NCBI GenBank assembly: GCA_028534125.1
Contig: CM052842.1
Coordinates: 310,001-374,000, forward strand
Length of the DNA stretch: 64,000 bases
From: Lama glama
Taxonomy: Eukaryota
Direction of reading: 5' to 3'
Position numbers and translations under genes: made by a program. This document shows, one piece after another, positions 401-29,230 of the stretch; the stretch's first letter is position 1, and the number at the start of each line of letters is the position of its first letter. A model generated the notes under the pieces. The model had not been told where the DNA came from and ran no database searches. It worked only from the letters and a program-made list of their open reading frames with translations.

Positions 401-2669
401 ACCAGGGGAGCAGCACAGACTGAAACACAGGAGACTGTGAGCTTATGACTGAGTGGGCAGGACAGAAAAGGATATCCCTCTGTGGCGTGTGCGGCTGTGA
501 CACGTCTACTGCCCAGCCACCCTGAGCTCAGCCCAGAGGAAACACTGGTGGTCTGCCAGCCACGGCAACGCTCTGCCCCAAGCCTTGCCCACACAGGGAG
601 GGACATTCAAACCTGCCCAGACAGTGCGCAAGGCTCTGCAGGAGCCCCACCCTTCATTTGAGTCCTGGAGTCCTGGAGGCTCCCAAGGGCCACCCACATC
701 CACACCCTGCTCCTCCTTCCAAAATGGAAGGAGGTTCTAGCAGGTGGGTGGGGTTGAAACCTATAAAGCTTGCCACACAAAATCAACAATAGCCAAGGTC
801 AAGGATTGCTCAAGGTCTCAGGGAGCCCCTGGCATGGGAACACAGGGCTGAGATTCCGTCCCAGCCACACAGTGGTGCCGCCACCTGATCTCCACCTCCA
901 CCCTGCAGCCCCGTCCCTTTCCACTTTCCTGGACCTCCCCTGCCCCATCCACAACCTCCTGACTCTCTGCTGACCCTGCCACTTAAGCCAACTCCAATCC
1001 CCCCATCTCCCACACACACCCTCTCCTCCTTATTGGAAGCTCTTTGAAGACCCGTCTGCAGGCCCTGTCTCTGCAGCCCCACCTCCCATGCACTCCTCTG
1101 TAGCACCAGTCTGCCTGATCTCTGTCACCACCAAGGAAGGATGCAGCCCAGAATCCGCCAGGGACCATCAGGCCTCGCAGTGTTCCTGGCAAAGGAGCCC
1201 ACGCCCCTCTCCATGGGGCCCTCTCCCCAGGGAATCTGTGGAACTAGACTTTCCTGTACCTCTATGTCCTTTTTCCTCAATGTGCTGTGCTGGCAAGGAT
1301 TTGCCCGAGGCCGCACAGCTTGGAAATGGTGGGGGGAGGTTCCCACCCTTCCTTCCACCACCACAAAGGGATTCAGTATGGTGGTGGCATGACACACATG
1401 TGGAAAGGTGATCAGGGCTGGGGTCAGGGGGCAGAGGTTGGGGGCTAGTCTGCAAAGACAGGAGTGTTATCCTGAAGTCTGTGAGGAAGATTTCAAGGAG
1501 ACTTCAAGAATCAAATCTGCATTTCAGACCCATCAACCCTGGCAGGTGAGAAGGATAAAGTCAAGGGGCTGAGACAGAGCCAAGAAGATCAGTAGGAGCA
1601 AATGCTCTGAACTCAGAAGGAAATAAGGAGCCCCAGCAGCAGGCTACTGGGCAGGGGGATGGAAAGCAAGGGCCGGGATCAGGGGTATTTAGGCGGAAGT
1701 TTGGAAGGAGCCTGAAGGTGGGAAGACACTGCCAGCTAGATGTCTGGCTTTGGCCAACAGGTAGACTGTGGTAGAGGCTTTGGGCTGGGTCACCAGAGCC
1801 TCACCTGAGACTGAGTTTCCAAAACTGCATGCAGTGGAGACAAGACCCCAGCGTTGAGCCCACAGATACAAGGGCCTCCTTCCTAGCAGCCTGCCAGCTC
1901 AGGCAACCTTCTGAGGAGAGCAGAGTCTAGGATGAACCAGTGGAGAGCCTACAAGGAGGTGAGGACAGTCCTGCTAAAGCTTCCTCATCCCATTCTGAGC
2001 AAGAGCTCGGGTGGAGGGTGGGGTCAGGTAGCTGGCTCAGAGCACCACACATCCCCCAACCAGGGACTCCCAGAGCCAGCCACCAGCCCCTTAGGCAATT
2101 CAGCTCCAGGGTAGGACTACCCTCGGTACCTCTGAAGAGAAGTAGGGGGCCCAGCCAGGAGCACAGAGGCCCCTTTACACCCCTTCCAGGGAAACCCAGT
2201 CCTGCCAGGGGAGCACCTGAGGGAGCAAGGACAAGGACTGAGAGGAGCAGTGTTGTGCTCCCCTCCACCTCCACCCCCGAGGTAAGGATCCAGGAAGAAA
2301 AGGAAAGCCCAGCGCTTTGGGGAGGGCTAACTTTTCTTCAGCTTCCCTAAACCTGGAATGATTCCACACACATGTCCCCTCTCTGCACCCATGGAGATTA
2401 ACCCCATAGTGGTCTCAGACTCTGCTCCAGGACAGGGAGGGGCCCCCACCAGGCATGGATACCCCCTCCCAGGCCTGGAGCACCTCGATACCAGCACAGG
2501 GCCAGGCACTTTCAACACATCAGTCACTTTTCTTGCCCTGAGATCAGTCTGTGAGCTGGAGCCCAGAATCCCCATCACAAGTGAGGTGACTTGAACCCTT
2601 GGAAGTTTCAGGAACTTGCCCCAGAAAGGCTCTAATTTCTCCTCTGGCCTAACTCCAAAGTCCACACAA

Positions 2670-15608: not shown

Positions 15609-16387
15609 ATGGCCCCCAGGCCATGGGGCGAGTGGAGCACCGCCCTGTCCCACCTGGCGCTGGGAGCGGTGTCTCTGCATGCTGCCGTGAGCACTGCCCA
15701 GGTGAGTACACTGGGGCTAGGCAGGAGTGTAGCCCACTCCCAAACCCCAAGAACCTAGACTGTCCCCTGGTTCAGGGAGAGGGTGGTGGGAGGTAAGTAT
15801 GGGGGCCAGGCTTCTGTGAGACCCCACCCCCCACCCCTCCCTGCTTAAAGGAACGCCCTGGCCTCTTTTTCCCACATTTCCTCCCTTCCCTGTGTTGACA
15901 GGCAAGTCGAGGGGCCGCTGCTGGCTTCCTGCTCCAAGCGTTGGCCGCGGCCACCATGCTGGTTCCAGGGCTGGGCACAAATGAAGACCATCCTGCTGGA
16001 GCCTGGGTGGCTACTGTCATCGGCCTGCCCCTTCTGGCCTTCGATTTCCACTGGGTGAATGGGGACCGCTCCTCTGCCAACCTGCTCCTGGGAGGAGGCA
16101 TGGTGCTGGCAGTGGCTGGTGACCACCTTGGTGCCGAGGGCCGCTCTGTGGCTGGTCAGGCAGTGGTGCTGGTGGTCGCAGTGACCATCCTCATTGTGGC
16201 TGTTTTCACGACCAACACTTACGGAATGTGGGGGGGTGTGATGCTGGGTGTTGCAGGCCTCCTGAGCCGGCTGGAGGAAGACAGACTGCTGCTGCTGCCG
16301 AAGGAGGACATCTGCTGCTGGGCCCTGGCCGCAGGCAGCTGGGCCTACCACCGGGCTCTACACAGACAACGCCTGCAGTGGGAGTGA
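15609..16387 (+). CDS. TMEM276: Transmembrane protein 276 (formerly the short CYHR1 isoform), 192 aa
   Basis: Exons 15609-15701 and 15902-16387; Kozak ACCATGG; MAPRPWGEWSTALSHLALGAVSLHAAVSTAQ ASRGAAAGFLLQ...; several hydrophobic segments; ends LQWE. Confidence 0.92.
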
Positions 16388-16667
16388 CATTGGAGATAGC
16401 AAGGCAGGGTTTCTGCTCTGGCTACCACGTTCGCCTCTAACGGGCCTGCTCCTGGGGCCTTCTTCCCTAGGGATGGACTCTCCTTCTTTCTGAAGCCGGC
16501 TTGCTGCAGTGACTGGTCAGGGTGGCAAAGGCTGGGCACTGTCTCCTTCTCTGGCTGAGTGTGAGGACTTGCTTAGACCAGAATGAGGGGAACAACATCC
16601 CAGGCACGTTTGGGGGCCTGATTCTGGGCAGGCCATGGTTGTGGGTCTAGAGAGATGCTCGGTCTCC

Positions 16668-16673
16668 AATAAA
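16668..16673 (+). terminator. TMEM276 poly(A) signal AATAAA
   Basis: Canonical hexamer about 280 nt after the stop. Confidence 0.8.
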
Positions 16674-17870
16674 CCTTAGGGACTTAGTAGGAATATGGAA
16701 TATGCCCATTCTTGAGAGGGAGTGAGGGGTCCTCCAGTAAGCTTCCTAAGGCTCCCAGGGCAGCAACTGGTTTTCCTGAGCAAAGGAAGGCATGCGCAGT
16801 GCACTACAACCAGCCCTGGGGCCTCACCCAGCTTGGCCTGCCAGCACCTTTGTCAGGAAGGCCGCTGGACTGAGAAGACATAGGAGACCTTGCTCTCCTG
16901 GGATGTGGTGGAGCCTCGTTCTGAATATCCTTGCACAGTCTGGCAGGTGGCCCTCTGAGGCAGTGACCTTCATGGGCCAAAGGCCTGGTGAGGGAGGGAG
17001 GGCCGTACCACATCTGTTCCCAGAAATGCACTTTCCCTCCCAGGGCTGACTCTACCTCCACCCGTTTGCCCTCTGACCCATGCAAAGCAAGTCCTGATTT
17101 CCTAAGACCTCACTTTTCTCAGTGAACCCCTACTCAGGTCCCAACCACAAGGTTAGGCAACGGGATTGGGCCAAGCAGGGGGTTAGATTCCGGGTCCAGA
17201 GCTCTCCCTTGGGGAATCCCTGCGCTTGCGTCCTGTGGAAACACATCTCATCCCGCATAGGAGGGAGAGGGTGGCCCGCGGGGTTTCTCGCACCTACGAG
17301 CCAGGTCGGAATTCCGCGCGCGCAAGCCTGCATGTCGGAGGACAAAGGCGCAGACACACCCGGACGCGGGGGTCTGAGGCTGCCTTCCGTTCCTGGGGTC
17401 CCAAGGCGTGTGATCGTTGTCCGGGACTGGTGGGAAGCGCAGCGCTCACCCGAGACCCCAGAACTTCCCCGCCGGGGCGAGTGCCCCTCCACCGGTCGCC
17501 TGGGGCCCCGCCCACTTTCTGCAGGGGTGGGCCTCCGCGCGCCCATTGGTTCTGGCCGCCGCGCCGTCTTGCCCGCTCGGTACTCCAATTGGCCTTGCGC
17601 AGCTCACGTGACTGGGAGAACGAGGGGGCGGTGGCGGCGGCGGCGCCGGAGCTGGGGAGCGCGCAGCGAAAACAAAGATGGCGGCTGCGCCGGGGTCGGT
17701 GGCCTCGGCGGCTGCGGGGCGACGCGCGGGCCGGACCCACTGAGGCGGCGGAGCAGGGAGCAGGGCTGCGGGGTCGCGGCGGCGGCGAGAGGGCGGCGGG
17801 AGCGCGCGGCGCCCCTAACCTCCAGCCGCGGGAGCGCGCCGGCACCCGCCCGCCGGGCCGGCCGGCCGCG

Positions 17871-20800
17871 ATGTCCGGCGCGGAGGAGGCCGGCGGGGGC
17901 GGCCCGGCCGCGGGGCCTGCCGGCGTCGTGCCGGCCGGGGCCGGGGTCGGGGCCGGGGCCGGGGTCGGGGCCGGGGCCGGGGCGGCCGCAGGGCCGGCGG
18001 CGGCGCTGGGCGAGGCGGCGGGGCCCGGGCTCCCAGACGAGGCGGGCCTGGCCGGAGCCCGGCAGCTGCAAGAAGCGGCCGGCGACCCCGACGCGCCGCC
18101 CAAGAAGCGGCTACGGGCGGCCGAGGCGGCCGAGGCGGCGGCGGCGGCGGCGGCGGCGGGCAGCGGGAAGCTGGAGGAGCGGCTCTACTCGGTTCTGTGC
18201 TGCACGGTCTGCCTGGACCTTCCCAAGGCCTCCGTGTACCAGGTAGGGCCGCCGGCCCGACCCCGACCCGGCCCGGCTCCAGCCCCGCCGCGGCCGGCCC
18301 CCAGGCACCGCGTCTCCTCGGAGGCCAGGCCCGAGCCCTGGGGCCCAGCGGTGCGACTCTGGTGCTTATTCGGAAGCTCCTCATTCTCTTCCTCTCAGGA
18401 CTTTCTTGTTTCTTGTTCGGAACCCTATTTTTTTCTTGTTTGACTCCCATTATTTCCTGAGATGCCTCTTCTCTTTTCAGGTCCCCTGCTGGCCCCTCCT
18501 CAGCACTCTCCAGTCCTCACGCTGACCCCAGGGAAAGCTGGTGACACATCCCCACGCTCCTCCCCACCCTCCCCACCTCCGGGCGTGACCCCCTCATTCC
18601 TGAGCTCCTGGGCTCTAGGAGCCCTGGTCTTCCCTCTTCATCAAGAGCTGCTTTTCTCTTCCTTGGCATACACACCTCCCAAACGTGTCCTCGTGCGCAT
18701 TCTGTACCCTTTTATTCTCGGGGGCAGAAGGACCTGCTTCACCTTGCCATTTCTTTCCAGAAGAACGTTGAAAATGTAGGGAAATACCTCTTTTCCTGCC
18801 CTTTCCCTTCATTCCTGGTCTGGATGAACCATTTGCATCAAGCCCCCCAGCTTGGGTCCCTTCTCCAGCCCCAGCACAGTCCAGCTCCTTCTGGGCATGC
18901 TGGGCCTCGGGCTAGGCTCCTGTCACATCCCACCTCACCCTGGCCAGACCTGTCTTCCCGGGCTACCAGTGCTTCAGGAGGTCTGTCCACTTTCCTTCTA
19001 TATGAAGGTCCAGCATGGTGGCTGGACTCAGAGTCCTTAACCCACTCGGGGCCGTCGAAGGGGGTGTTTGGTCCAGGTTGCTCTTCCGTGTGCACCATAT
19101 AGCCACAGGGGCCACACTCTGGTCCCAGGGCCAGTGTGCAGTGTCCTGCCTTCTCTGTTGTCTGTCTCCAGCTCAGTCTCTCCATCTCTGATAACCCTTC
19201 CCTCCAGAGCCCCTTAGAAGAATGAAACAATACCCTATCACCTTTCTTTGCATTTATAGAAGTTGGGCACGGCTGTTGAAGCCTTGTCCCTCTCTTATAC
19301 TCACATTGGGGGCTGTGAGTGAGAGAGACCTGTTGTAAACAGCGCAGAGTTAGTCTGGATTGCCCTTTCCCCAGCCTCTGGATCTCCAGACCCGTCCCAC
19401 TCTGGTATAAGGTGGCTTGCTCAGGAGGCTTCCAGTGCACCTGGGTGATGGAGAGAGGAAGGAAGGGGCATGGGCGGGGAAGTGGGTTGAGTTCCTTGGA
19501 GAGAAGACACAGGCTCTCAACCTGCCCCCCTGTGCTTTGGGACGCTCCTGGCCAGAGGCCTCCTGGCCCAGCATGATGGGGTAGGGCTTCTCATAATGCC
19601 TTATGGGTGCCCCTCAGAACTTGTCCTTTCTCTGGCTTCTTTTTTCCTTGCCCATGATCCTGCCAGGTGGAAGAAATCTTTCTTGGGCCTTGGATGAGAA
19701 TCTAGGAAGCCAAGCTAGTGGTTGCAGGGTGGGTGGCATAGGGGAATTGGGGTTCTCCTCATCTCCCCTCCTGTGAGTGGATTGGAGCTGGACCTGACAT
19801 GATAACAGGCCATGTGGTGCCGGCTCTTGGGCCGCTCAGCACAGAGAGCTGCAGCTTTGCCTCTGGAGCTGTGGTGGCTGGGCCTCTGAGCCTGGCTGGT
19901 TTAAACCGGCCCGCACTGAGCTGGGAGCTGAGCTCAGACTGGAGGCAGGCGGCTGAGCAGCTGTGATGGAGAGTGAAGGCGCTGGGGCCACCTGACCCAT
20001 GGCCTCTCTCATGGCCTCGTGGGCTCTGCATAGTGGCTTCCCTGGGAATAGGCCTGCTGAGTGAAGAGAGCCCACTGGTGCTGAGCTGTGGGTTCTGGCA
20101 CCGGCCTCTGCCCCACTCGGGGCCTTGGCAAGGGGTTGCTCCCCTCTCGTTTCCAGAGGCTTGGAAAAAGCTTTAGAACGTTTGACCAGCAGGAGAGCCC
20201 TCAGTTCTGGAAGGGTTGGCTGGAGCCCTGCTATGAGGCAGAACTCACTTGGGCTGCTGGAAGACCTGCCACGGGTCAGGGCCACGTAGGTTGTGGATGC
20301 TCTGCCGTGCCTGTGCTGGAGCCTGGGTGTGAGGGGCCTGAGGGAGGGCTGGGGGAACAAGGGAAGGCCTCTCAGTGGCTCCCTGCTGCATGCAGTGTTC
20401 TGTTTCACCATCCCTGCCAACCTGGTTGGGGACGTGAGGGCGGGGGTCGGGATGGACCTGGAGGCCCGCACCACTGCCTGGTTGCCATCAAAGCTAGGTT
20501 TGCTCCCGGGAGGATCAGGTCAAGGATGGCATGGGCTCCACTGCCGGCCATCACTCCTTGGCCTGGGCTCAGCCCCTCCACTTCTGCTGGCGTCCTCTGG
20601 TGAGTCATGTGAACTGGTTGTCTGTGGTGGGCTGGCCTCAGGATGTGGTGTGTTTTGCTCTCTGTTCCTACTGGCAACGGTTTGCCTGACCCCACCAGGA
20701 CATGCGGCTCAGGGCGGGCAGCAGCCATGCGGTGCATCTGAGGGCAGTTTCAGATGGTGCTCAGTTATAGGGTGAGGGGAAGAGCCAGTGGCCATGCTGA

Positions 20801-23800
20801 GCCCTGTGTACTGTGCCTGGCACTGGGGCCGAGGGAGACAACTCTCTGGGCCTCTGGGGGTGGCTGGGTGCATAGTTAGCTTGAGAGCTTGCTGTCTGGC
20901 CCCCAGACACCACCCTGTGCCTCCAGAGCAGCCTTCGCGAGGTGAAGCAGACATGGCTGCACGGTTGGGCTTGTTCCCCTACGCCCTAATCCGAGCCCCT
21001 GGCCCCACGGTGTCGGCTCCCCACATGCCGTGCACATCACACCACCTGGGTTGGGAAACTGTCTCTGGGGTCAGACCAGGGCACTCATGCAAATGGTTCT
21101 TCCAGTGGCCTGTGTTAGGTCAGGCTTGGTCAGGACTACAGCAGGCACAGCAGGTGTTGGCTTTGATGTTCTCCGTGTGGGTGTTAGGTATGTCCTTGAT
21201 GACTGGCCTGACAAGGTCTGCAGCCACCTTCCAGAGTCTTGGGTGGGCATGCAGCAGGCTACCAGGCAGCGGTAGGAAGGCTGGAGTTGTGGCAGGGACA
21301 CTCAGACAGGAGTTCAGTGCTGGAGCAGTTGGTGGGCAGCTTGTACTGGCCCCTGTTCTGAATGCAGGCAGTGTGATCTGGTTCCTCTGCCTTCTTTAGG
21401 GGAGGCCCAGCCTCAGTTGATGGTGCCTGAAGTGTTGCAGCCACAGCCTGATCCCTGACACTGACACCCCTCCCAAGCTCTCTCCCAGCCCTTCACACAA
21501 GGCCCAATGTGTCTTCCATGAGACAAACCTGGCCTTGACCCTACTGGTGTCAGCCGAGGCTCTGAGCTGTGGTCCAGACTCTCCCACCCCGACCTAGTTC
21601 TCAGCCAGGAAAGCTCCTTGTGACACCCATCAGTGGAGGAGTAGTCAGGGTTTCTCTGTCATAGAATGTGGCACCAACTGGCCTTCCGGCCCCTCTGCCC
21701 ACCGCTCCTGGGCTCAGTCCTGGGCCCTGCCCCTCCAGCCCATTGATCCTGTGCCTTTTCTGCCCAGTGCCCTCTCCCTTTCCCTGCCCACTCTGTCCTC
21801 TTCCTTGTGGCCCCAGTGAGGTGCTGTGGTGGTCTTTTCTCCTGGCTGCAGGATACCTGTCCCATCCTACCAGCCTGGGGCACTTGCCACTGTGCCCAGT
21901 GGGAGGATTGGGGATGACCTACTGTACCTCCCACCCCTAAGGTCCCTTCCCCCCCAGGACTCGGCTCAGCCCGTTGGGCTGGTTACCTGATCGGCAGTCA
22001 CATTGGTAAAAGGCCCAGAAAGCAGAGGAGGCCCTGGCCAATGTGGGCACATGCCTTGGGGAGCCTCCAAGCACACTTTCTTGGCGTCTGTCAGCCTGCC
22101 TGGTACTGCGGGCTCCGGTCAAAGTGATGTTTAAGAAATCTCTGATGGGGCTGCCCACCCACAGGACCTGGAATCCTCTTCCCCAGCTCCGAGACTATGG
22201 CTGGCTCATGCTTTGAGATGAAAAAGGTAGCAGAAAAGAGCTTTGAAAATGTATTTGCTTAGCTATCCAAAACAAGGACAGAGAGGAGAAATTTTCTGGA
22301 CTCTGGCTAGAGGAGAAGTGTCTTTGTGGTGGATGTTTGTCATTTGAGTTACCTTTCAATCTGGGCAGCACTTAGGTCCTGAGCAAGAACCTGACTCTGC
22401 GGGTTTGACTGGTCCCCACCCAAGTCCTGGCCCTCCGGGTGGCGTGACATGAGAACCACTGGCCCAGGACTTCACACTCAAAACCTGTGCAGGGTTGGAG
22501 TCCTGGCTTCACCTGAGATAGCCGTGCATCTTGGACACTGCATGGTCCCTTCTTGGTTCCTTAATGAAAGAAGGAGGTTGAGGAAACCTCGGGCTGAGCA
22601 TGCAGAGTGTGGGGTGCCATGCGGCCCTCTTGGGCACGGAGCCTGCCTTTAGTGATAAAGAGTAGAGTATGGGGGGGAGCAGGGTCTGAGGCATTCCAAG
22701 CCTGAAAGGCCTACTGATTGAGGACCTGGCCCCCAGAAGCTGGGGACATTTTCTAAGAACTGCTTTTGTCCCAAGACCTGATGGCTAGGGCTCCTCCTCA
22801 GGAGTCCAGATGATTCAGCTCCCGCAGGGGAGAAGCTGGTTCAGATGGAGACTCCGGGCACGCACAGCCTGGGTGTCCATTAGCTGCCTGTGGCCAGGCA
22901 GACAGAGGGACTGCTGGGTGATGTCCTATGCGGGCAGGTACAGATGCCCACTTCTGGGCCATTTGCAGAGGGGCTTGGCTGGGGCTGGAGAACCCAAGGG
23001 TAGGGGGGTGTTGTTGAAATCATAGACTTGTGCCTGGAGTTCTTTCTGAGGCTCTGCAAGCGGGGGGGATCTGCTGGGTGATTACCAGGGAGGACAGTAG
23101 CCCTGTGCCCTCTGTGTGCTAGGGGCCAAGCTGCAGTGCTGCTTACATTGTCCCATCCCACCTCTTCAGCACGTAATAAGACTGGTCCTGTCCTCGCTGC
23201 TGTTTGTGCGTGAGGAAGTTGAAGGTCTGTTAGGAAGGTGACCAGCCTGAAGTCATGCTGCTGGAGACCTGTGGGTCTAGCCATCATCTGTGCTTGGAGG
23301 GCCTGGAAGGCCCTGCAATGTTGTCCTGGGTTGTGGAGCCCCTCTCCCTACTCCTCCCTGTCACAGGGGTCTTCCCGCAAGGCGGTGGGAAGATAGCCTG
23401 GCCTGCACGGCAGGACCTGCTCTCAGGGGCCCAGGCTCTTGGGGGCTTGGCCCTAGCGTCTAGTAGGGCACTCGGGCCTGCCCTGGCTGGTGCTGTCCAT
23501 CAGAGGCTTGGTGTGCGACTGGTGCCAGGCAGAGTTTTCTAGGGCCCAGCTTCTGGCTGGGCAAATCGGGGCAGGTACTAGGGCAGGACTGTACCGTCCA
23601 GCCCAACCTCTTCAGGGATGGCTCTGTGCTGCCCTGGGCTAGGTCTGCATTGCAGAGTTGGGTCTTGCTTGGGAGGCCAGGGGGCCTGGCTGGTGGGGAA
23701 GGCTACTGAGTATGGTGACTATCTACTATGGACAGATCACCTGGGCTGGGTGTCTGCTGGGGCCATGGCAGCCACCTGGTGACCACCCAGAGAGCGTCCC

Positions 23801-26800
23801 TTGCAGGGCTGGTAAGGGTGAGCTGCACGTGGACGTTAGCTGGTCCCTCCCGCCAGACTGGCAGCACTCGGGGCATCTTGCTTGTTCACCACGTTCCGAC
23901 GCAGAGCTGAGCTGCTGGGGCTGAAGGCGCAGTGACCCTGCCTCTCCCTGGAGTCCAGGGGAGGGCAGGTGCCATATTACCTGAGCCTTTGTTGGGTCTG
24001 GAGGCTCCTAGAGGCTCGGTGGGGCCTGGCCCAGGAGCTTGGGTGTCCCTGCAGCCCCCAGGCTCTAAGGAGAGGCCTGGCAGGTGGGGTACCCAGTCCA
24101 CTCCAGAGCAGTGGGCTTTCAGGGCAGTGCTGGGAGGTCAGCAGTCACACATTCGGCTGCCTCTGGGTCCCCTCAGGAGGTCCCTGGACTCCATCCCAAG
24201 TCTCCCTCCCTCAGGCCCAGGGCCTGGCTGGGCCACCTGGAGACAGGAGAGACCCCGTGGGTCAGGCCCTGCCTGGGCAGTATCTCATCAAGAGGCATGT
24301 AGAACTGGAGCTGGCCACGCGAAACAGTGGGGGGTCCCCAGGCCCTGGTGGGGGTGTCTGAGTGTCCGTGTCCTGCGGGCCCTGGCACGGTTCTTGGTGT
24401 CCTGCCTGGCTTCCTCACTGGGACTTCACCAGGCAGCAGGTACCACTTCCTTCCCTGCCTTATAGAAGCTGTAGTTGTAGCCCTTGCTTTGCCTCTGTCC
24501 CTTGGCCAGGGCTCTGAGAGGAGGTATGACCGGGGCTCTTGTTCTGTACCTCCCACGGGGCGGCAACAGGCTCTGGTGTCCATGTCCCTTCCCCTCCGAG
24601 TCTCTGGCTTCTCCACTGACCTTCAGGGTGGGACGGGATAGGCTGCTTTCCTCCCTGACCGCTCTCAGAACCAGCCTCACTCCCCCACCTTAGCCAGCCT
24701 GTGTGTCCAGACCTGGCGCTGGTTGGCCCCTCCTCTATGCTCTTCCTCCAAGCCTGAGCCAGCCAGCTCACCTTCCTCCTCTTGTACGTTTTCAGTTTTG
24801 AACTGACTTAGAAATTGAGATTTGAGTGCAGCTAGACTGTGGCATTTGTGCAGATGTGGCTTCTGTGAATGAAGCCTTTGTCCCCAGCCCCGAATTCCCA
24901 CTATCGGTCTTCAGCACACAGGTCACATCCCTCACTAGACCCCAGGCACAGCCCATGGGTGCTGAGAGCTCACTCAGCCTCCTCCAGCCCTCAGCTCAGG
25001 GTGCGCGGACCCCTGAGGCAATGGGATGGAAGCTGGTGTATTCAAGGCCCCCATCATGTACGGGCTTGGCCAGGCAGTGGCCCGGTGAGTCTCTCTGCCA
25101 CCCTGTATCCCACTCAGAAGGGTCCTGGGCCCCGAGGAAGTCTGTAGCCCAGTGGCTTTCTGGAGGTTTGCATGGCCGGTGGGGCCTGTGGAAGCATGGC
25201 CTGCCTGCTCACCAGTCTCCCAGTGGAGATCCAGTGCCCTCAGTGGGTTCCTGCACATCCCTCCCAGGACTCCCTGGGCTCTGTGAGACCCCTGTGCCTG
25301 CCCCTCTTCACCAGCCCCTGGGGTGGACCTGGGGGAACTGTCTACCCCAGAGGACACTTGGCTCAAGCCTTTGCTCTTGCACCTCTTGTTCCCATGGGGG
25401 GCTCTCCTCCCCCAACCCTGTCAGCCCCTGCGGGGCCAGGCCCACTGCCCCTGGATGTCTCCCAACAGCACCAGGTAGGTGCTCAGGGGGTGTGTGTGGA
25501 CAGTGAGACACCCTGGGTAGCTAAGCTGGCAGCCTGTTATCCCCACGGGCCAGGACCCCCAGCCAGAGTGTACGGGCAGCAACACCCCCTGCCTGCAGCC
25601 CCCATCCCCACCTCCCACAGGCAGGCCCTGCCCACGTGCCCTCGTCCTGGGTTTCCCCACCTGCCACAACAGGGAACCAGCCTCACTGGGTAGGTGCAGC
25701 TGGCTTCTCACCTGTGCTGGCCGGGGAGGCCGATATGGAGGGGTCAGGCTGGGGGTTGACCTGAGCCAGGGAGGGGGTGTAGGAAGAGTCTGCTGCCCAC
25801 TCAGCTGTGTGCTGAGGGCCACTGCCATGCCTGGCTGAGTGCCCCCATTCCTGTAGATGTCTCCGTCAGGCTCTGTGGGGGACTCCTGGCCCCAGGATGG
25901 GAAAAGGCCAGGCCCCCAGCCCCAGTGTGCTTAAAGCAGTCTCCGCCAGTGGGCCTGCCTTTATGAAGGGCTGTAACCTCTGCAAGCCGACAAGGGCCAC
26001 CCTCAAGACACCCCTTCCACCGGGGCCCCACTGGCTGAGCCTGCAGCACTCCAGGAGAGAGGCCTGGCTCTCCTGTCAAACACCTGCGCACCTGGGGCCC
26101 TTCATGCAGTTGGAGCCCTGGGCCGGCCAGCGGAGGGTGGGGAGGAGGGGGCGCGTGCGGCTGTGCAAGTCCCGCAGGTCTGTGAGCTTCATCTCCCTTT
26201 CCTTCTTCGCAGTGTACTAACGGTCACTTGATGTGCGCTGGCTGTTTTATCCACCTACTAGCAGATGCCCGGCTGAAGGAGGAGCAGGCCACGTGCCCCA
26301 ACTGTCGTTGCGAGATCAGCAAGAGCCTCTGCTGCCGCAACCTGGCCGTGGAGAAGGCTGTGAGTGAGCTGCCCTCCGAGTGTGGCTTCTGCCTGTGCCA
26401 GTTCCCCCGCTCCCTCCTGGAGAGGCACCAGAAAGAGGAGTGCCAGGACAGGTAACTGGCAGGTCCTTCCATGCCCGCAGCCTGGCGACAACCTTGCAGG
26501 ACTGGCCACGTGAAGCTGCTCAGAGCCTGGGCCGATGGGGGTGGTGGGCACAAGGCCCCCCAGAACAGCACTGGGATCTGTAGCTAGTGTGTGTCTGGAC
26601 ATTACCCTGGCCCTCCAGGGTTCTTCCTGGCAGTGTGGTGGCCTCTTAGACACTGTCCTTGCATTCTTGGGCCAGGAGAGCATGGGTGGCACAGGCGCTC
26701 TGGGAGCGAGTTGTGAGGCCGCACTGGCACCCCTGCCTGGCTGGTGGACACTGCTGCCTGCCGGCAGGGCCCAGCTGCCAAGCCACACGTGGACCAGAGC

Positions 26801-29230
26801 AGTGTGGGCCCCACCATGGTCAGTGGCAGCTGTCGCCAAGCAGGAGAGAGACTTCACGATGCAGCTCCCACACGCTCCTTCTCAGTCTCTGCCCCACGTG
26901 CTCTGAGCCCTTCCCGGGGTGGCACACAGGGACTGTGCCCTTCAGGGGAGGTTTGTGAGAGCAGGGCTGGGTGGAGGCCCCCCCTTTGGAGGACCCCTGG
27001 GCGCAGCCACCTACCATGGGGCGCAGGCGTGACCACCGTGCTTGCCTCCTCCCCAGGGTCACCCAGTGCAAGTACAAGCGCATCGGCTGCCCATGGCATG
27101 GCCCTTTCCACGAGCTGACGGTGCATGAGGCCGCGTGCGCCCACCCAACCAAGACGGGCAACGAGCTGATGGAGATCCTGGACGAGATGGACCAGAGCCA
27201 CCGCAGGGAGATGCAGCTGTACAACAGCATCTTCAGCCTGCTCAGCTTTGAGAAGATCGGCTACACAGGTGAGGGCCGCCGCCCACTGCAAACCACACAG
27301 GTCGGGGTGGGGCCCGGCCGCCAGGGGCATGGGGGAGAGCAGGCTCCGGGCAGTGGGCACAGTTGTACCAGGTGGACAGGCTCCGCTGCAGGGGAGAAGG
27401 TGGGCTGGAGGCTGGGCAGGGAAGGGGCCACCAGGACCCTTGGGGGCAGCTGCATGGCTCTCACAGAGGCCCCTCCCCCTGTCCTCCCAACCCCAGCCCT
27501 GCCACCCCAGCAAGGCGGTGTCCTTATTGCGTGGGGCAGCACAGCCTTGGGACGGTCAGGGTCTGACCAGGAAGTGAGTGTGTCTTGTGGGGTCTGGGAG
27601 CTGGGGGCCCGCCCCTTGGAGCCAGGGGCAAGAAGAGTACTTGACGTCGCGTCCTGCCTACAGGCGGTTACTGCAGTGGCCGTGGGCCTCCTGAGGCCAG
27701 CGAGAAGACAGTCAGGGCCAGGGCTCCAGAACGAGCCGAGGGTCCCCAAGTCGAGCTGCAGAGCTGGGCGTGGACGCCCTGGGATGGGCAGGCTGGACTG
27801 CACCCAGGCCCACTGGATCTCTTGGGCTCTCCTGGCCACCACCACTGCCTTTGGACACGCTGGGGAGCAGGAGTCAGGCCAGAAGCTGGTCTAGACACAG
27901 AGAACAGCAAGAAGCACCTGCTGTCGCTGGAGCTGCTGGGGGTATTCTGGTCCTCTCCTGCCCAGCCCACGCCAGGCGGCCGGCTCAGAGCATCAAGGGC
28001 AGCCACAGGCAGCAGTCACACCATGCTGCCTGGACTGGGCCTGGCGAGGTGTAGGCCTGTGTAGGCCCCACAGGCTGAGGGCCTGGGGCCTCAGCAGCAA
28101 AAGGCCACGGCCCCTGATTAGTCGTAGCCTCAGCCATCCTGGTGGGCAGCGTATCACAGACAGTCCAGGCCAGGCCTCGAGGGTCCGGGCAGGCCGAGGC
28201 ATCGTGACTGCAATGGCAGCCGGGCAGAAACAACTGGCCATCTCCGTGGAGTGACTCGCAGGCCATGGGCCGTGCTGAGAGGACAGTGTGACAGCAGTCG
28301 CCCACTGACGGGCGGGCCTGCGGCCGGCTGGCAGAGCCCAGCATTGGGCCAGACACTGGCACTCCGCCTCACAGCCCAGCGCAGGCTTGGGTGCCACACG
28401 CCAGCCCTCCTGCCGGCTTTTCTGGCAGCTCTGTATCAGAACCAATAAAGTGCACTTGTTCTCAGAACTGCATCCTGTCTGTGTGTCTGCTTACCCACGC
28501 CCCTGGGGCGGGGCCTCTCCCTCTGCTGGGCCTTGAGGGGTGGCAAGGAGGGACGCCAGTAGGGGCCCGGCAGGGCCAGCCGCTCACCTCTTGCAGCCTC
28601 TGGACTCCATGCAGCTAATGCGTGTCACTTCTGTTTATAGTCGTTTCCCCCAAGCTTGTGTGCGCCTCCGTTTGCCATAATCGCGTTTGACTTGCCTTGT
28701 GCCAAGTAGAGCGCATGGTGTCCTGGTAAGTTGCCTTCCTCCCTGGCTGAGCCTGTGTTCTCAGCCGGTCGGGAAGGCGCCACCACCCGGCCCTGCCCGC
28801 TCTGACTGCCGGCCCTCCCGGCCTGTCTGTCTCCACAGAGGTCCAGTTCCGGCCCTACCGCACGGATGACTTCATCACGCGCCTGTACTACGAGACGCCG
28901 CGGTTCACGGTGCTGAACCAGACGTGGGTCCTGAAGGCACGTGTGAACGACTCGGAGCGCAACCCCAACCTGTCCTGCAAGCGCACGCTCTCCTTCCAGC
29001 TGCTCCTCAAGAGCAAGGCCACGGCGCCGCTGGAGTGCTCCTTCCTGCTGCTCAAGGGCCCATATGACGATGTGAAGATCAGCCCCGTCATCTACCACTT
29101 CGTCTTCACCAACGAGAGCAACGAGACGGACTACGTGCCGCTGCCCATCGTCGACTCCGTGGAGTGCAACAAGCTGCTGGCCGCCAAGAACATCAACCTG
29201 CGGCTCTTCCTGTTCCAGATACAGAAGTAG
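17871..29230 (+). CDS. ZFTRAF1: Zinc finger TRAF-type and RING finger containing 1 (CYHR1), 404 aa
   Basis: Exons 17871-18242, 26213-26451, 27057-27268, 28839-29230, in frame. RING-like CTVC...[11 protein letters not shown]...CPNC, TRAF-type zinc fingers (CGFC...HQKEEC; CKYKRIGC...HEAAC), ends LFLFQIQK. Confidence 0.95.
17937..17984 (+). repeat. Coding hexanucleotide repeat (GGGGCC/GGGGTC) x8
   Basis: GGGGCC GGGGTC GGGGCC GGGGCC GGGGTC GGGGCC GGGGCC GGGGCG, encoding [16 protein letters not shown]. Confidence 0.95.
18135..18158 (+). repeat. Pure (GCG)8 polyalanine repeat in ZFTRAF1 exon 1
   Basis: Read directly from the sequence. Confidence 0.95.
28641..28725 (+). other. Candidate 85-nt stop-containing cassette exon in ZFTRAF1 intron 3
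   Basis: Branch-like GCTAAT, then TCACTTCTGTTTATAG acceptor and CTG|GTAAGT donor; in-frame TGA at 28688-28690. Confidence 0.6.

Follow-up and report, generated by a model that had tools for sequence, protein, structure and literature searches.

The closest described system to the locus analysed here is the annotated TMEM276-ZFTRAF1 readthrough (formerly CYHR1), recorded in cow (NP_001309751.1) and in human (NP_001394950-57). It is the orthologous locus, with the same genes, the same junction and a 362-aa product. The fusion is thus an entity already known, as an earlier sequence-only reading of the llama DNA had held, and both cow and human have curated RefSeq records; the cow protein is curated as 'TMEM276-ZFTRAF1 readthrough precursor'. 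The llama structure, as read from the DNA, is no different.

Two further systems resemble the fusion in design. In Kua-UEV1 (TMEM189/PEDS1-UBE2V1), an upstream gene for a membrane protein is spliced to exon 2 of a downstream gene of the ubiquitin system, and relocation is the effect proposed in the accessible part of PMC6862657. Kua-UEV1, however, is spliced from an ordinary exon donor with the final Kua exon left out, whereas the 362-aa form of TMEM276-ZFTRAF1 has its donor inside the final coding exon and truncates the membrane bundle as well as the RING. SIAH3 and the RING-deleted forms of SIAH1/2, as described in the accessible part of PMC5547486, combine SIAH-like zinc fingers and likely substrate-binding parts with the lack of a working RING. 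Unlike the fusion, SIAH3 is a separate gene. SIAH proteins are known to form dimers. The TMEM276 portion resembles the GPCR-like/CREST seven-helix fold (myomaker, ACER3, AdipoR2), to which its model aligns over the full length (Z 12.8-13.2); equally good matches are a class C GPCR, a chain of rhodopsin type and designed folds, and mammalian TMEM276 has no conserved H3-S-D set.

The literature searched, which lies largely outside the subscription journals, yielded no paper on what the fusion or TMEM276 does. The read-through literature searched does not mention CYHR1, and the fusion is not discussed in the accessible parts of PMC12997640, PMC11540382, PMC5855601 and PMC10041065. The llama fusion corresponds to the annotated mammalian read-through, and its product is probably a tolerated and dispensable minor isoform, predicted to lack ligase activity.

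The llama locus and the recorded fusions

The window, a stretch of 64,000 nucleotides of Lama glama DNA, contains TMEM276 and ZFTRAF1 as tandem genes on the same strand, with TMEM276 directly upstream. The features, in window coordinates, are the following.

15609-15701, + strand: TMEM276 coding exon 1, 31 aa, phase 0, predicted helix 1
15902-16388, + strand: TMEM276 coding exon 2, completing 192 aa in total
15902-16054, + strand: internal exon when the exonic donor is used, 153 nt, predicted helices 2-3
16052-16060, + strand: exonic phase-0 donor TGG/GTGAAT, codons W82-V83-N84, cut at 16054/16055
16055-16388, + strand: remainder of TMEM276 exon 2, predicted helices 4-7 and stop, spliced out in the fusion
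16668-16673, + strand: sole TMEM276 AATAAA, without a U/GU-rich downstream element, likely weak
17000-18499, strand not applicable: CpG island, ZFTRAF1's own promoter, CpG observed/expected 0.68-1.03
17871-18242, + strand: ZFTRAF1 coding exon 1, 124 aa, skipped in the fusion
18201-18212, + strand: CTVC of ZFTRAF1 exon 1, aa 111-114, RING ligands 1-2
26213-26451, + strand: ZFTRAF1 exon 2, phase-0 acceptor, RING ligands 3-8 and start of the zinc fingers
27057-27268, + strand: ZFTRAF1 exon 3
28839-29230, + strand: coding part of ZFTRAF1 exon 4, C-terminal domain, likely Sina/TRAF-like, and stop

Translated from its own exon 1, ZFTRAF1 has 404 aa in four coding exons. The donor at 16054/16055 and the acceptor at 26213 are both phase 0, and splicing out the 10,158-nt intron between them gives an in-frame join. 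The result is a TMEM276-ZFTRAF1 chimera of 82+280 = 362 aa with the junction FHW-CTNGH. This splice arithmetic, proposed in the sequence-only reading, was reproduced and is correct. Assembled in silico, the chimera is identical to the camel RefSeq model (P0001) at 360/362 positions and to the cow record NP_001309751.1 at 348/362.

The exonic donor agrees with 6/9 consensus positions, as do three further GTs of TMEM276 exon 2 in other phases, so by itself it is unremarkable; by a crude score of U1 pairing, 16055 could not be told apart from a phase-0 GT at 16007. It rises above chance because 40/198 of the proteins read use exactly the FHW-CTN junction. There are at least 40 carriers, the clusters having contributed the members listed for them: camel, cow, sheep, whales, bats, carnivores, rodents, primates, two marsupials, platypus and echidna. 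The junction is annotated from monotremes to primates, including most placental orders.

The recorded forms vary. The human CYHR1 protein of 362 aa named in the earlier reading has its counterpart in the curated records NP_001394950-53 as far as the FHW-CTN junction is concerned, but these have a different 3' end and 291 aa (P0136). In the human records NP_001394954-57, TMEM276 exon 1 is joined straight to ZFTRAF1 exon 2. The earlier reading did not include this second fusion form, which uses the TMEM276 exon-1 donor (CAG/GTGAGT, 9/9 consensus positions). TMEM276 exon 1 is common to the 192-aa, the 362-aa and the exon-1-only fusion forms. With the usual 3' end the exon-1 form would by arithmetic have 31+280 = 311 aa, the length of mouse Chrp. 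A hamster model (P0032) has a third join, further along TMEM276 exon 2, and human (P0135) and mole (P0196) records begin at an internal Met of exon 2 (MCAGC...).

Most of the 40 junction records are computed models and are not independent, and the llama fusion might never be spliced and be merely a projection of the human or cow protein in the annotation. A tortoise model (P0128) fuses the two genes elsewhere (LPLL-CTNGH), in the Leu group that has no GT, which shows that projection can create fusion records. On the other hand, the llama donor is intact, curated records exist in the cow, a fellow artiodactyl, and in human, and the models of platypus and echidna have precisely this junction. 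Projection is a very improbable account of the llama fusion.

The tortoise model would also imply that the genes were adjacent before the donor arose. It was the only non-mammalian fusion found; none appeared among proteins of 469-2000 aa, which is weak evidence, and ZFTRAF1 sequence was present in 0/76 further proteins. The llama genome itself contains a fragment of about 198 bp of a spliced ZFTRAF1 exon 2/3 retro-copy (contig C26). The fragment begins 61 bases into ZFTRAF1 exon 2, so that the junction and the 5' partner are not covered, and no more pieces of the retro-copy were found within about 10 kb on either side.

Proposed formation of the read-through RNA

When 12 poly(A) hexamer variants were sought between the TMEM276 stop and the ZFTRAF1 ATG, the AATAAA at 16668 was the only match. 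The 50 nt downstream of it contain 0 TGT/GTT/TTT triplets, versus 11, 4 and 3 at the three ZFTRAF1 signals. From the AATAAA there are about 1.2 kb to the ZFTRAF1 ATG and about 400 bases to the ZFTRAF1 CpG island, which a read-through transcript must cross; the CpG observed/expected ratio is 0.13 at 16500-16999 versus 0.68-1.03 in the island. At the other end, intron 3 has an AATAAA at 28444 with a GU-rich downstream stretch, and in the human and bat records the 3' ends vary after exon 3. These records also combine 5' and 3' ends in several further ways, as leaky processing would, and the locus looks leaky at both ends. The proposal that the fusion level depends on competition between the exonic donor and the AATAAA at 16668 fits the weak-looking poly(A) site.

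The fusion RNA would then plausibly form as follows. Transcription would run past the presumably leaky, weak-looking poly(A) site of TMEM276. The ZFTRAF1 exon-2 acceptor would be spliced to one of two donors, the internal one for the 362-aa form or that of exon 1 for the 311-aa form; both joins to ZFTRAF1 exon 2 are shown by curated cow and human records, and in the llama they are presumed. Since the stop remains in the last exon, the fusion RNAs would escape NMD.

The transcription itself might be what matters. Read-through from the TMEM276 promoter could cross the CpG island and tune the ZFTRAF1 promoter, or could supply ZFTRAF1 exons 2-4 from a second promoter, and the short intergenic gap, the weak-looking poly(A) site and the human P0135 and mole P0196 records that begin at the internal exon-2 Met are in line with such a role. 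Sequence alone, however, does not separate a role from harmless leakage, and we regard this explanation as improbable.

Probable birth and loss of the exonic donor

The donor GT lies inside the Val codon 83, directly after the FHW motif of TMEM276. At residue 83, Val is the commonest amino acid (100 records), followed by Leu (39) and Met (5), and 14 records have no match to the motif. All the named Leu-83 records are non-mammalian (turtles, crocodilian, tuatara, squamates, birds and amphibians), five of the 39 being unnamed. The Met-83 records are those of pig, warthog, both elephants and one further member of the pig cluster. In beaver, the residue after V83 is changed to His. No Leu codon starts with GT, so the donor likely arrived with the Leu-to-Val change. 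These records suggest that it was born in stem mammals, before the monotremes split.

A metagenome scan for the synonymous comparison gave 3 matches, one mammalian and two chance bacterial. The mammalian contig (L002) is of pig type, is 161/161 identical to the pig exon-2 protein and reads TGG/ATGAAT at the donor site. Judged from the sequences, the donor is lost twice, in suids (pig and warthog) and in elephants, which are independent lineages. The loss would have occurred without rescue, although the fusion through the exon-1 donor may be kept in pigs and elephants. Because pigs and elephants lost the signal, the fusion is likely a dispensable by-product and not an essential regulator.

The conservation of the codon was followed by parsimony over 81 mammalian TMEM276 sequences, with 11 broken or fused models excluded. 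V83 changes twice, which is the median of the 192 columns. Within positions 74-86, ten never change and two change once, which leaves V83 as the most variable of the 13; reversion to the ancestral Leu-83 occurs in 0/81 mammals. The donor codon thus appears to be under no extra constraint at the protein level. The earlier reading had named a donor conserved no better than its codons require as a result that would refute its proposal, and at the protein level this is what was found, with Met in two lineages. For synonymous change the comparison covers two DNA sequences, and the pig-type copy, which lacks the GT, still has AAT; with two species compared, the donor may be under weak selection. The GT would have come with the Leu-to-Val change and would persist mostly through the constraint on FHW-x-NGD for the sake of TMEM276 itself.

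The predicted protein and its significance

The 404-aa ZFTRAF1 has a complete set of RING ligands: CTVC at 111, CTNGH at 125 (C-x3-H), CAGC at 132 and CPNC-R at 152. The eight ligands are in cross-brace order, a hydrophobic residue precedes C2 and a linchpin Arg follows C8. The RING aligns to SIAH1, RING2 and BRCA1 with E 0.008-0.03, and Sina_RING is above the cut-off in the mole ZFTRAF1 record; the chimera, on the other hand, has no match in the PDB at E<=0.05. In a cross-brace, ligands 1-2 make half of zinc site 1. The accessible part of PMC13061254 lists ZFTRAF1 as a category 1 RING in the E3-ome, a category that denotes curator inclusion and not demonstrated activity, and states that the E2-binding hydrophobic residue precedes the second RING cysteine. 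No in vitro ubiquitin-transfer assay of either form appears in the accessible parts of PMC13061254 and PMC12997640.

The earlier reading placed the CTVC pair in the skipped exon, and aa 111-114 of ZFTRAF1 exon 1 indeed bear it. Ligands 1-2, loop 1 and the E2-binding hydrophobic residue, all encoded by this exon, are missing from the fusion, and the TMEM276 part of the fusion offers no replacement CxxC. Ligase activity is likely lost in the 362-aa form because ligands 1-2 and the E2-binding residue are dropped, so that the ligase-dead product predicted earlier is in agreement with the RING anatomy. A degenerate yet working RING (SP-RING, hemiRING) was considered and set aside, as the loop-1 chain itself is gone and not merely its ligands. 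For the C-terminal domain, Atlas leads point to Sina_TRAF/MATH clusters (0.76-0.79), at lead level only.

The TMEM276 part was modelled with AlphaFold on the camel protein, which is 187/192 identical to that of llama. With 72 sequences the model has pLDDT 94, pTM 0.88 and seven predicted helices (5-29, 34-51, 58-83, 87-106, 109-133, 137-152 and 165-191), in agreement with seven peaks of averaged hydropathy. A first run with 28 sequences gave pLDDT 66, and its fold matches are meaningless. The cut at W82 falls at the end of predicted helix 3 (58-83); the roughly three hydrophobic segments that the earlier reading assigned to the chimera are helices 1-3 by both hydropathy and model. In the prediction they are the front of a seven-helix bundle and not a stand-alone anchor.

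The fold search gave tied matches to myomaker (Z 13.2), ACER3 (13.0), AdipoR2 (12.8), a GABA-B receptor (13.2) and designed folds (13.4-13.5). The alignments to myomaker, ACER3 and AdipoR2 are full-length (rmsd 3.6-3.9 over 179-191 residues), and the TM-score to ACER3 is 0.71. Foldseek with the TMEM276 model returned no match at E<=0.001, and no Pfam family was above the cut-off for TMEM276; DUF6962 appeared below the cut-off in 2/28 distant relatives. Atlas clusters auto-named TMEM147, DUF4791 and DUF6962 (0.90-0.94) were not confirmed by the fold search. The CREST superfamily has an H3-S-D metal site, according to the accessible part of PMC13562381. The predicted model has the seven-helix, GPCR-like bundle of this superfamily, and the 28 tetrapod TMEM276 rows have no conserved H3-S-D set; 44 more distant rows keep a partial one, namely S14 (34), D15 (30), H61 (31), D167 (30) and H170 (30).

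The same part of PMC13562381 reports the fold neighbours in both membrane orientations, so the fold leaves the topology unfixed. Charges (K+R / D+E) are 0.64 / 1.54 at the N-terminus, 1.5 / 0.14 in loop 1 and 0.39 / 1.82 in loop 2, a pattern with which loops 3 and 6 disagree. An N-out protein would have the zinc fingers of the fusion on the cytosolic side, and on these charges a cytosolic location is quite likely.

Several observations sit uneasily with dispensability. From monotremes to most placental orders, the fusion has persisted very long for noise. Moreover, none of the 81 mammals went back to Leu, and the in-frame cut falls exactly at a helix end, on the predicted cytosolic side.

A selected, mammal-specific regulator is the second reading of the protein. 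Helices 1-3 would hold a ZFTRAF1 with a dead RING at the membrane of the ER or the nuclear envelope. There it would capture substrates, or it would bind the 404-aa ligase and damp or relocate that form. The identical junction from monotremes to primates, the charge bias around helix 1, which favours N-out and cytosolic zinc fingers, and two precedents agree with it: RING-deleted SIAH1/2 act as dominant negatives and SIAH3 has no functional RING (accessible part of PMC5547486), and the Kua-UEV1 read-through shifts a nuclear ubiquitin factor to the cytoplasm (accessible part of PMC6862657). However, the donor was lost twice and is conserved no better than its neighbours. An in-frame join has a prior of one in three, and it is the in-frame forms that escape NMD and enter the annotation. 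Reduced to three helices, the compact seven-helix bundle would expose surfaces that are normally buried, loops 3 and 6 are off the charge pattern, and the RefSeq 'precursor' label could point to signal-peptide cleavage and a reversed topology. Such a regulator is rather unlikely, and the membrane-tethered adaptor of the sequence-only reading, taken as a selected one, is not favoured, given the two losses, the lack of extra codon conservation and helices that are a fragment of a bundle. A more specific version, in which the Leu-to-Val change made a donor that turned helices 1-3 into an anchor for RING-dead ZFTRAF1, a mammal-specific inhibitor set by competition between poly(A) site and splicing, is unlikely to a slightly greater degree; if it were true, pigs and elephants would be natural knock-outs.

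The dispensable isoform with a broken RING is therefore favoured over the adaptor, the role of transcription and the projection. Its protein is predicted to contain three of the seven bundle helices, zinc fingers that are probably cytosolic and a half-RING unable to hold zinc site 1 or an E2. Such a half-bundle, an orphan, would probably lack stability, and whatever effect it had would be weakly dominant-negative.

To the catalogued fusion the present analysis adds the probable birth of the donor, its two losses, the conservation of its codon, the predicted cut at the end of helix 3, the exon-1 join and the weak-looking poly(A) signal. A report cited in the accessible part of PMC12997640 links loss of both ZFTRAF1 alleles to a neurodevelopmental disorder as its cause, and studies of 'CYHR1' may have used the RING-broken fusion instead of the 404-aa ligase. 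With its datable birth and repeated loss, the donor allows selection for a long-lived read-through to be cleanly distinguished from mere carriage by protein constraint.

Exon joins between TMEM276 and ZFTRAF1

The donor of TMEM276 exon 1 and ZFTRAF1 exon 2 are both in phase 0, and their join would lead to a fusion of 311 aa with one helix, a connection that is also contained in human RefSeq records.

15702 to 26212: join of the TMEM276 exon-1 donor (consensus match of the donor 9/9) to ZFTRAF1 exon 2
17871-18170: extended Gly/Ala-rich region, coded by ZFTRAF1 exon 1, that contains the motif PPKKRLR

The PPKKRLR motif resembles a nuclear localisation signal and would also be missing from the TMEM276-ZFTRAF1 fusion. 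In hamster, the protein record P0032 is a model of 447 aa in which TMEM276 runs as far as LPKED and then continues into ZFTRAF1 exon 2; at the corresponding codon of the window there is no GT. RefSeq also lists a TMEM276 isoform 2 of 143 aa for mouse and rat (P0157 and P0160), the length of which would be matched by a start at the Met of the helix 2-3 region.

Early end and retro-copy of ZFTRAF1

28444-28449: AATAAA in ZFTRAF1 intron 3, with a GU-rich stretch downstream
L006 (G000:C26, same genome), about 1455-1652, minus strand: retro-copy fragment of ZFTRAF1 exons 2/3

The intronic AATAAA agrees with human and bat records that stop after ZFTRAF1 exon 3, without the C-terminal domain. The retro-copy fragment (about 198 bp, 91% identity) is spliced and frameshifted, is preceded by a T run and has similar TACAGTAT words on both flanks.

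TMEM276 fold and relatives

TMEM276 (15609-16388) is predicted, in the AlphaFold model of the camel protein, to form a seven-helix, GPCR/CREST-like bundle. Relatives were found in limpets, ray-finned fish and shark. A Ser/Asp/His/Asp/His set at positions 14, 15, 61, 167 and 170 is kept by the distant relatives and mostly gone in tetrapods; the tetrapod TMEM276 looks as if it were a degenerate enzyme.
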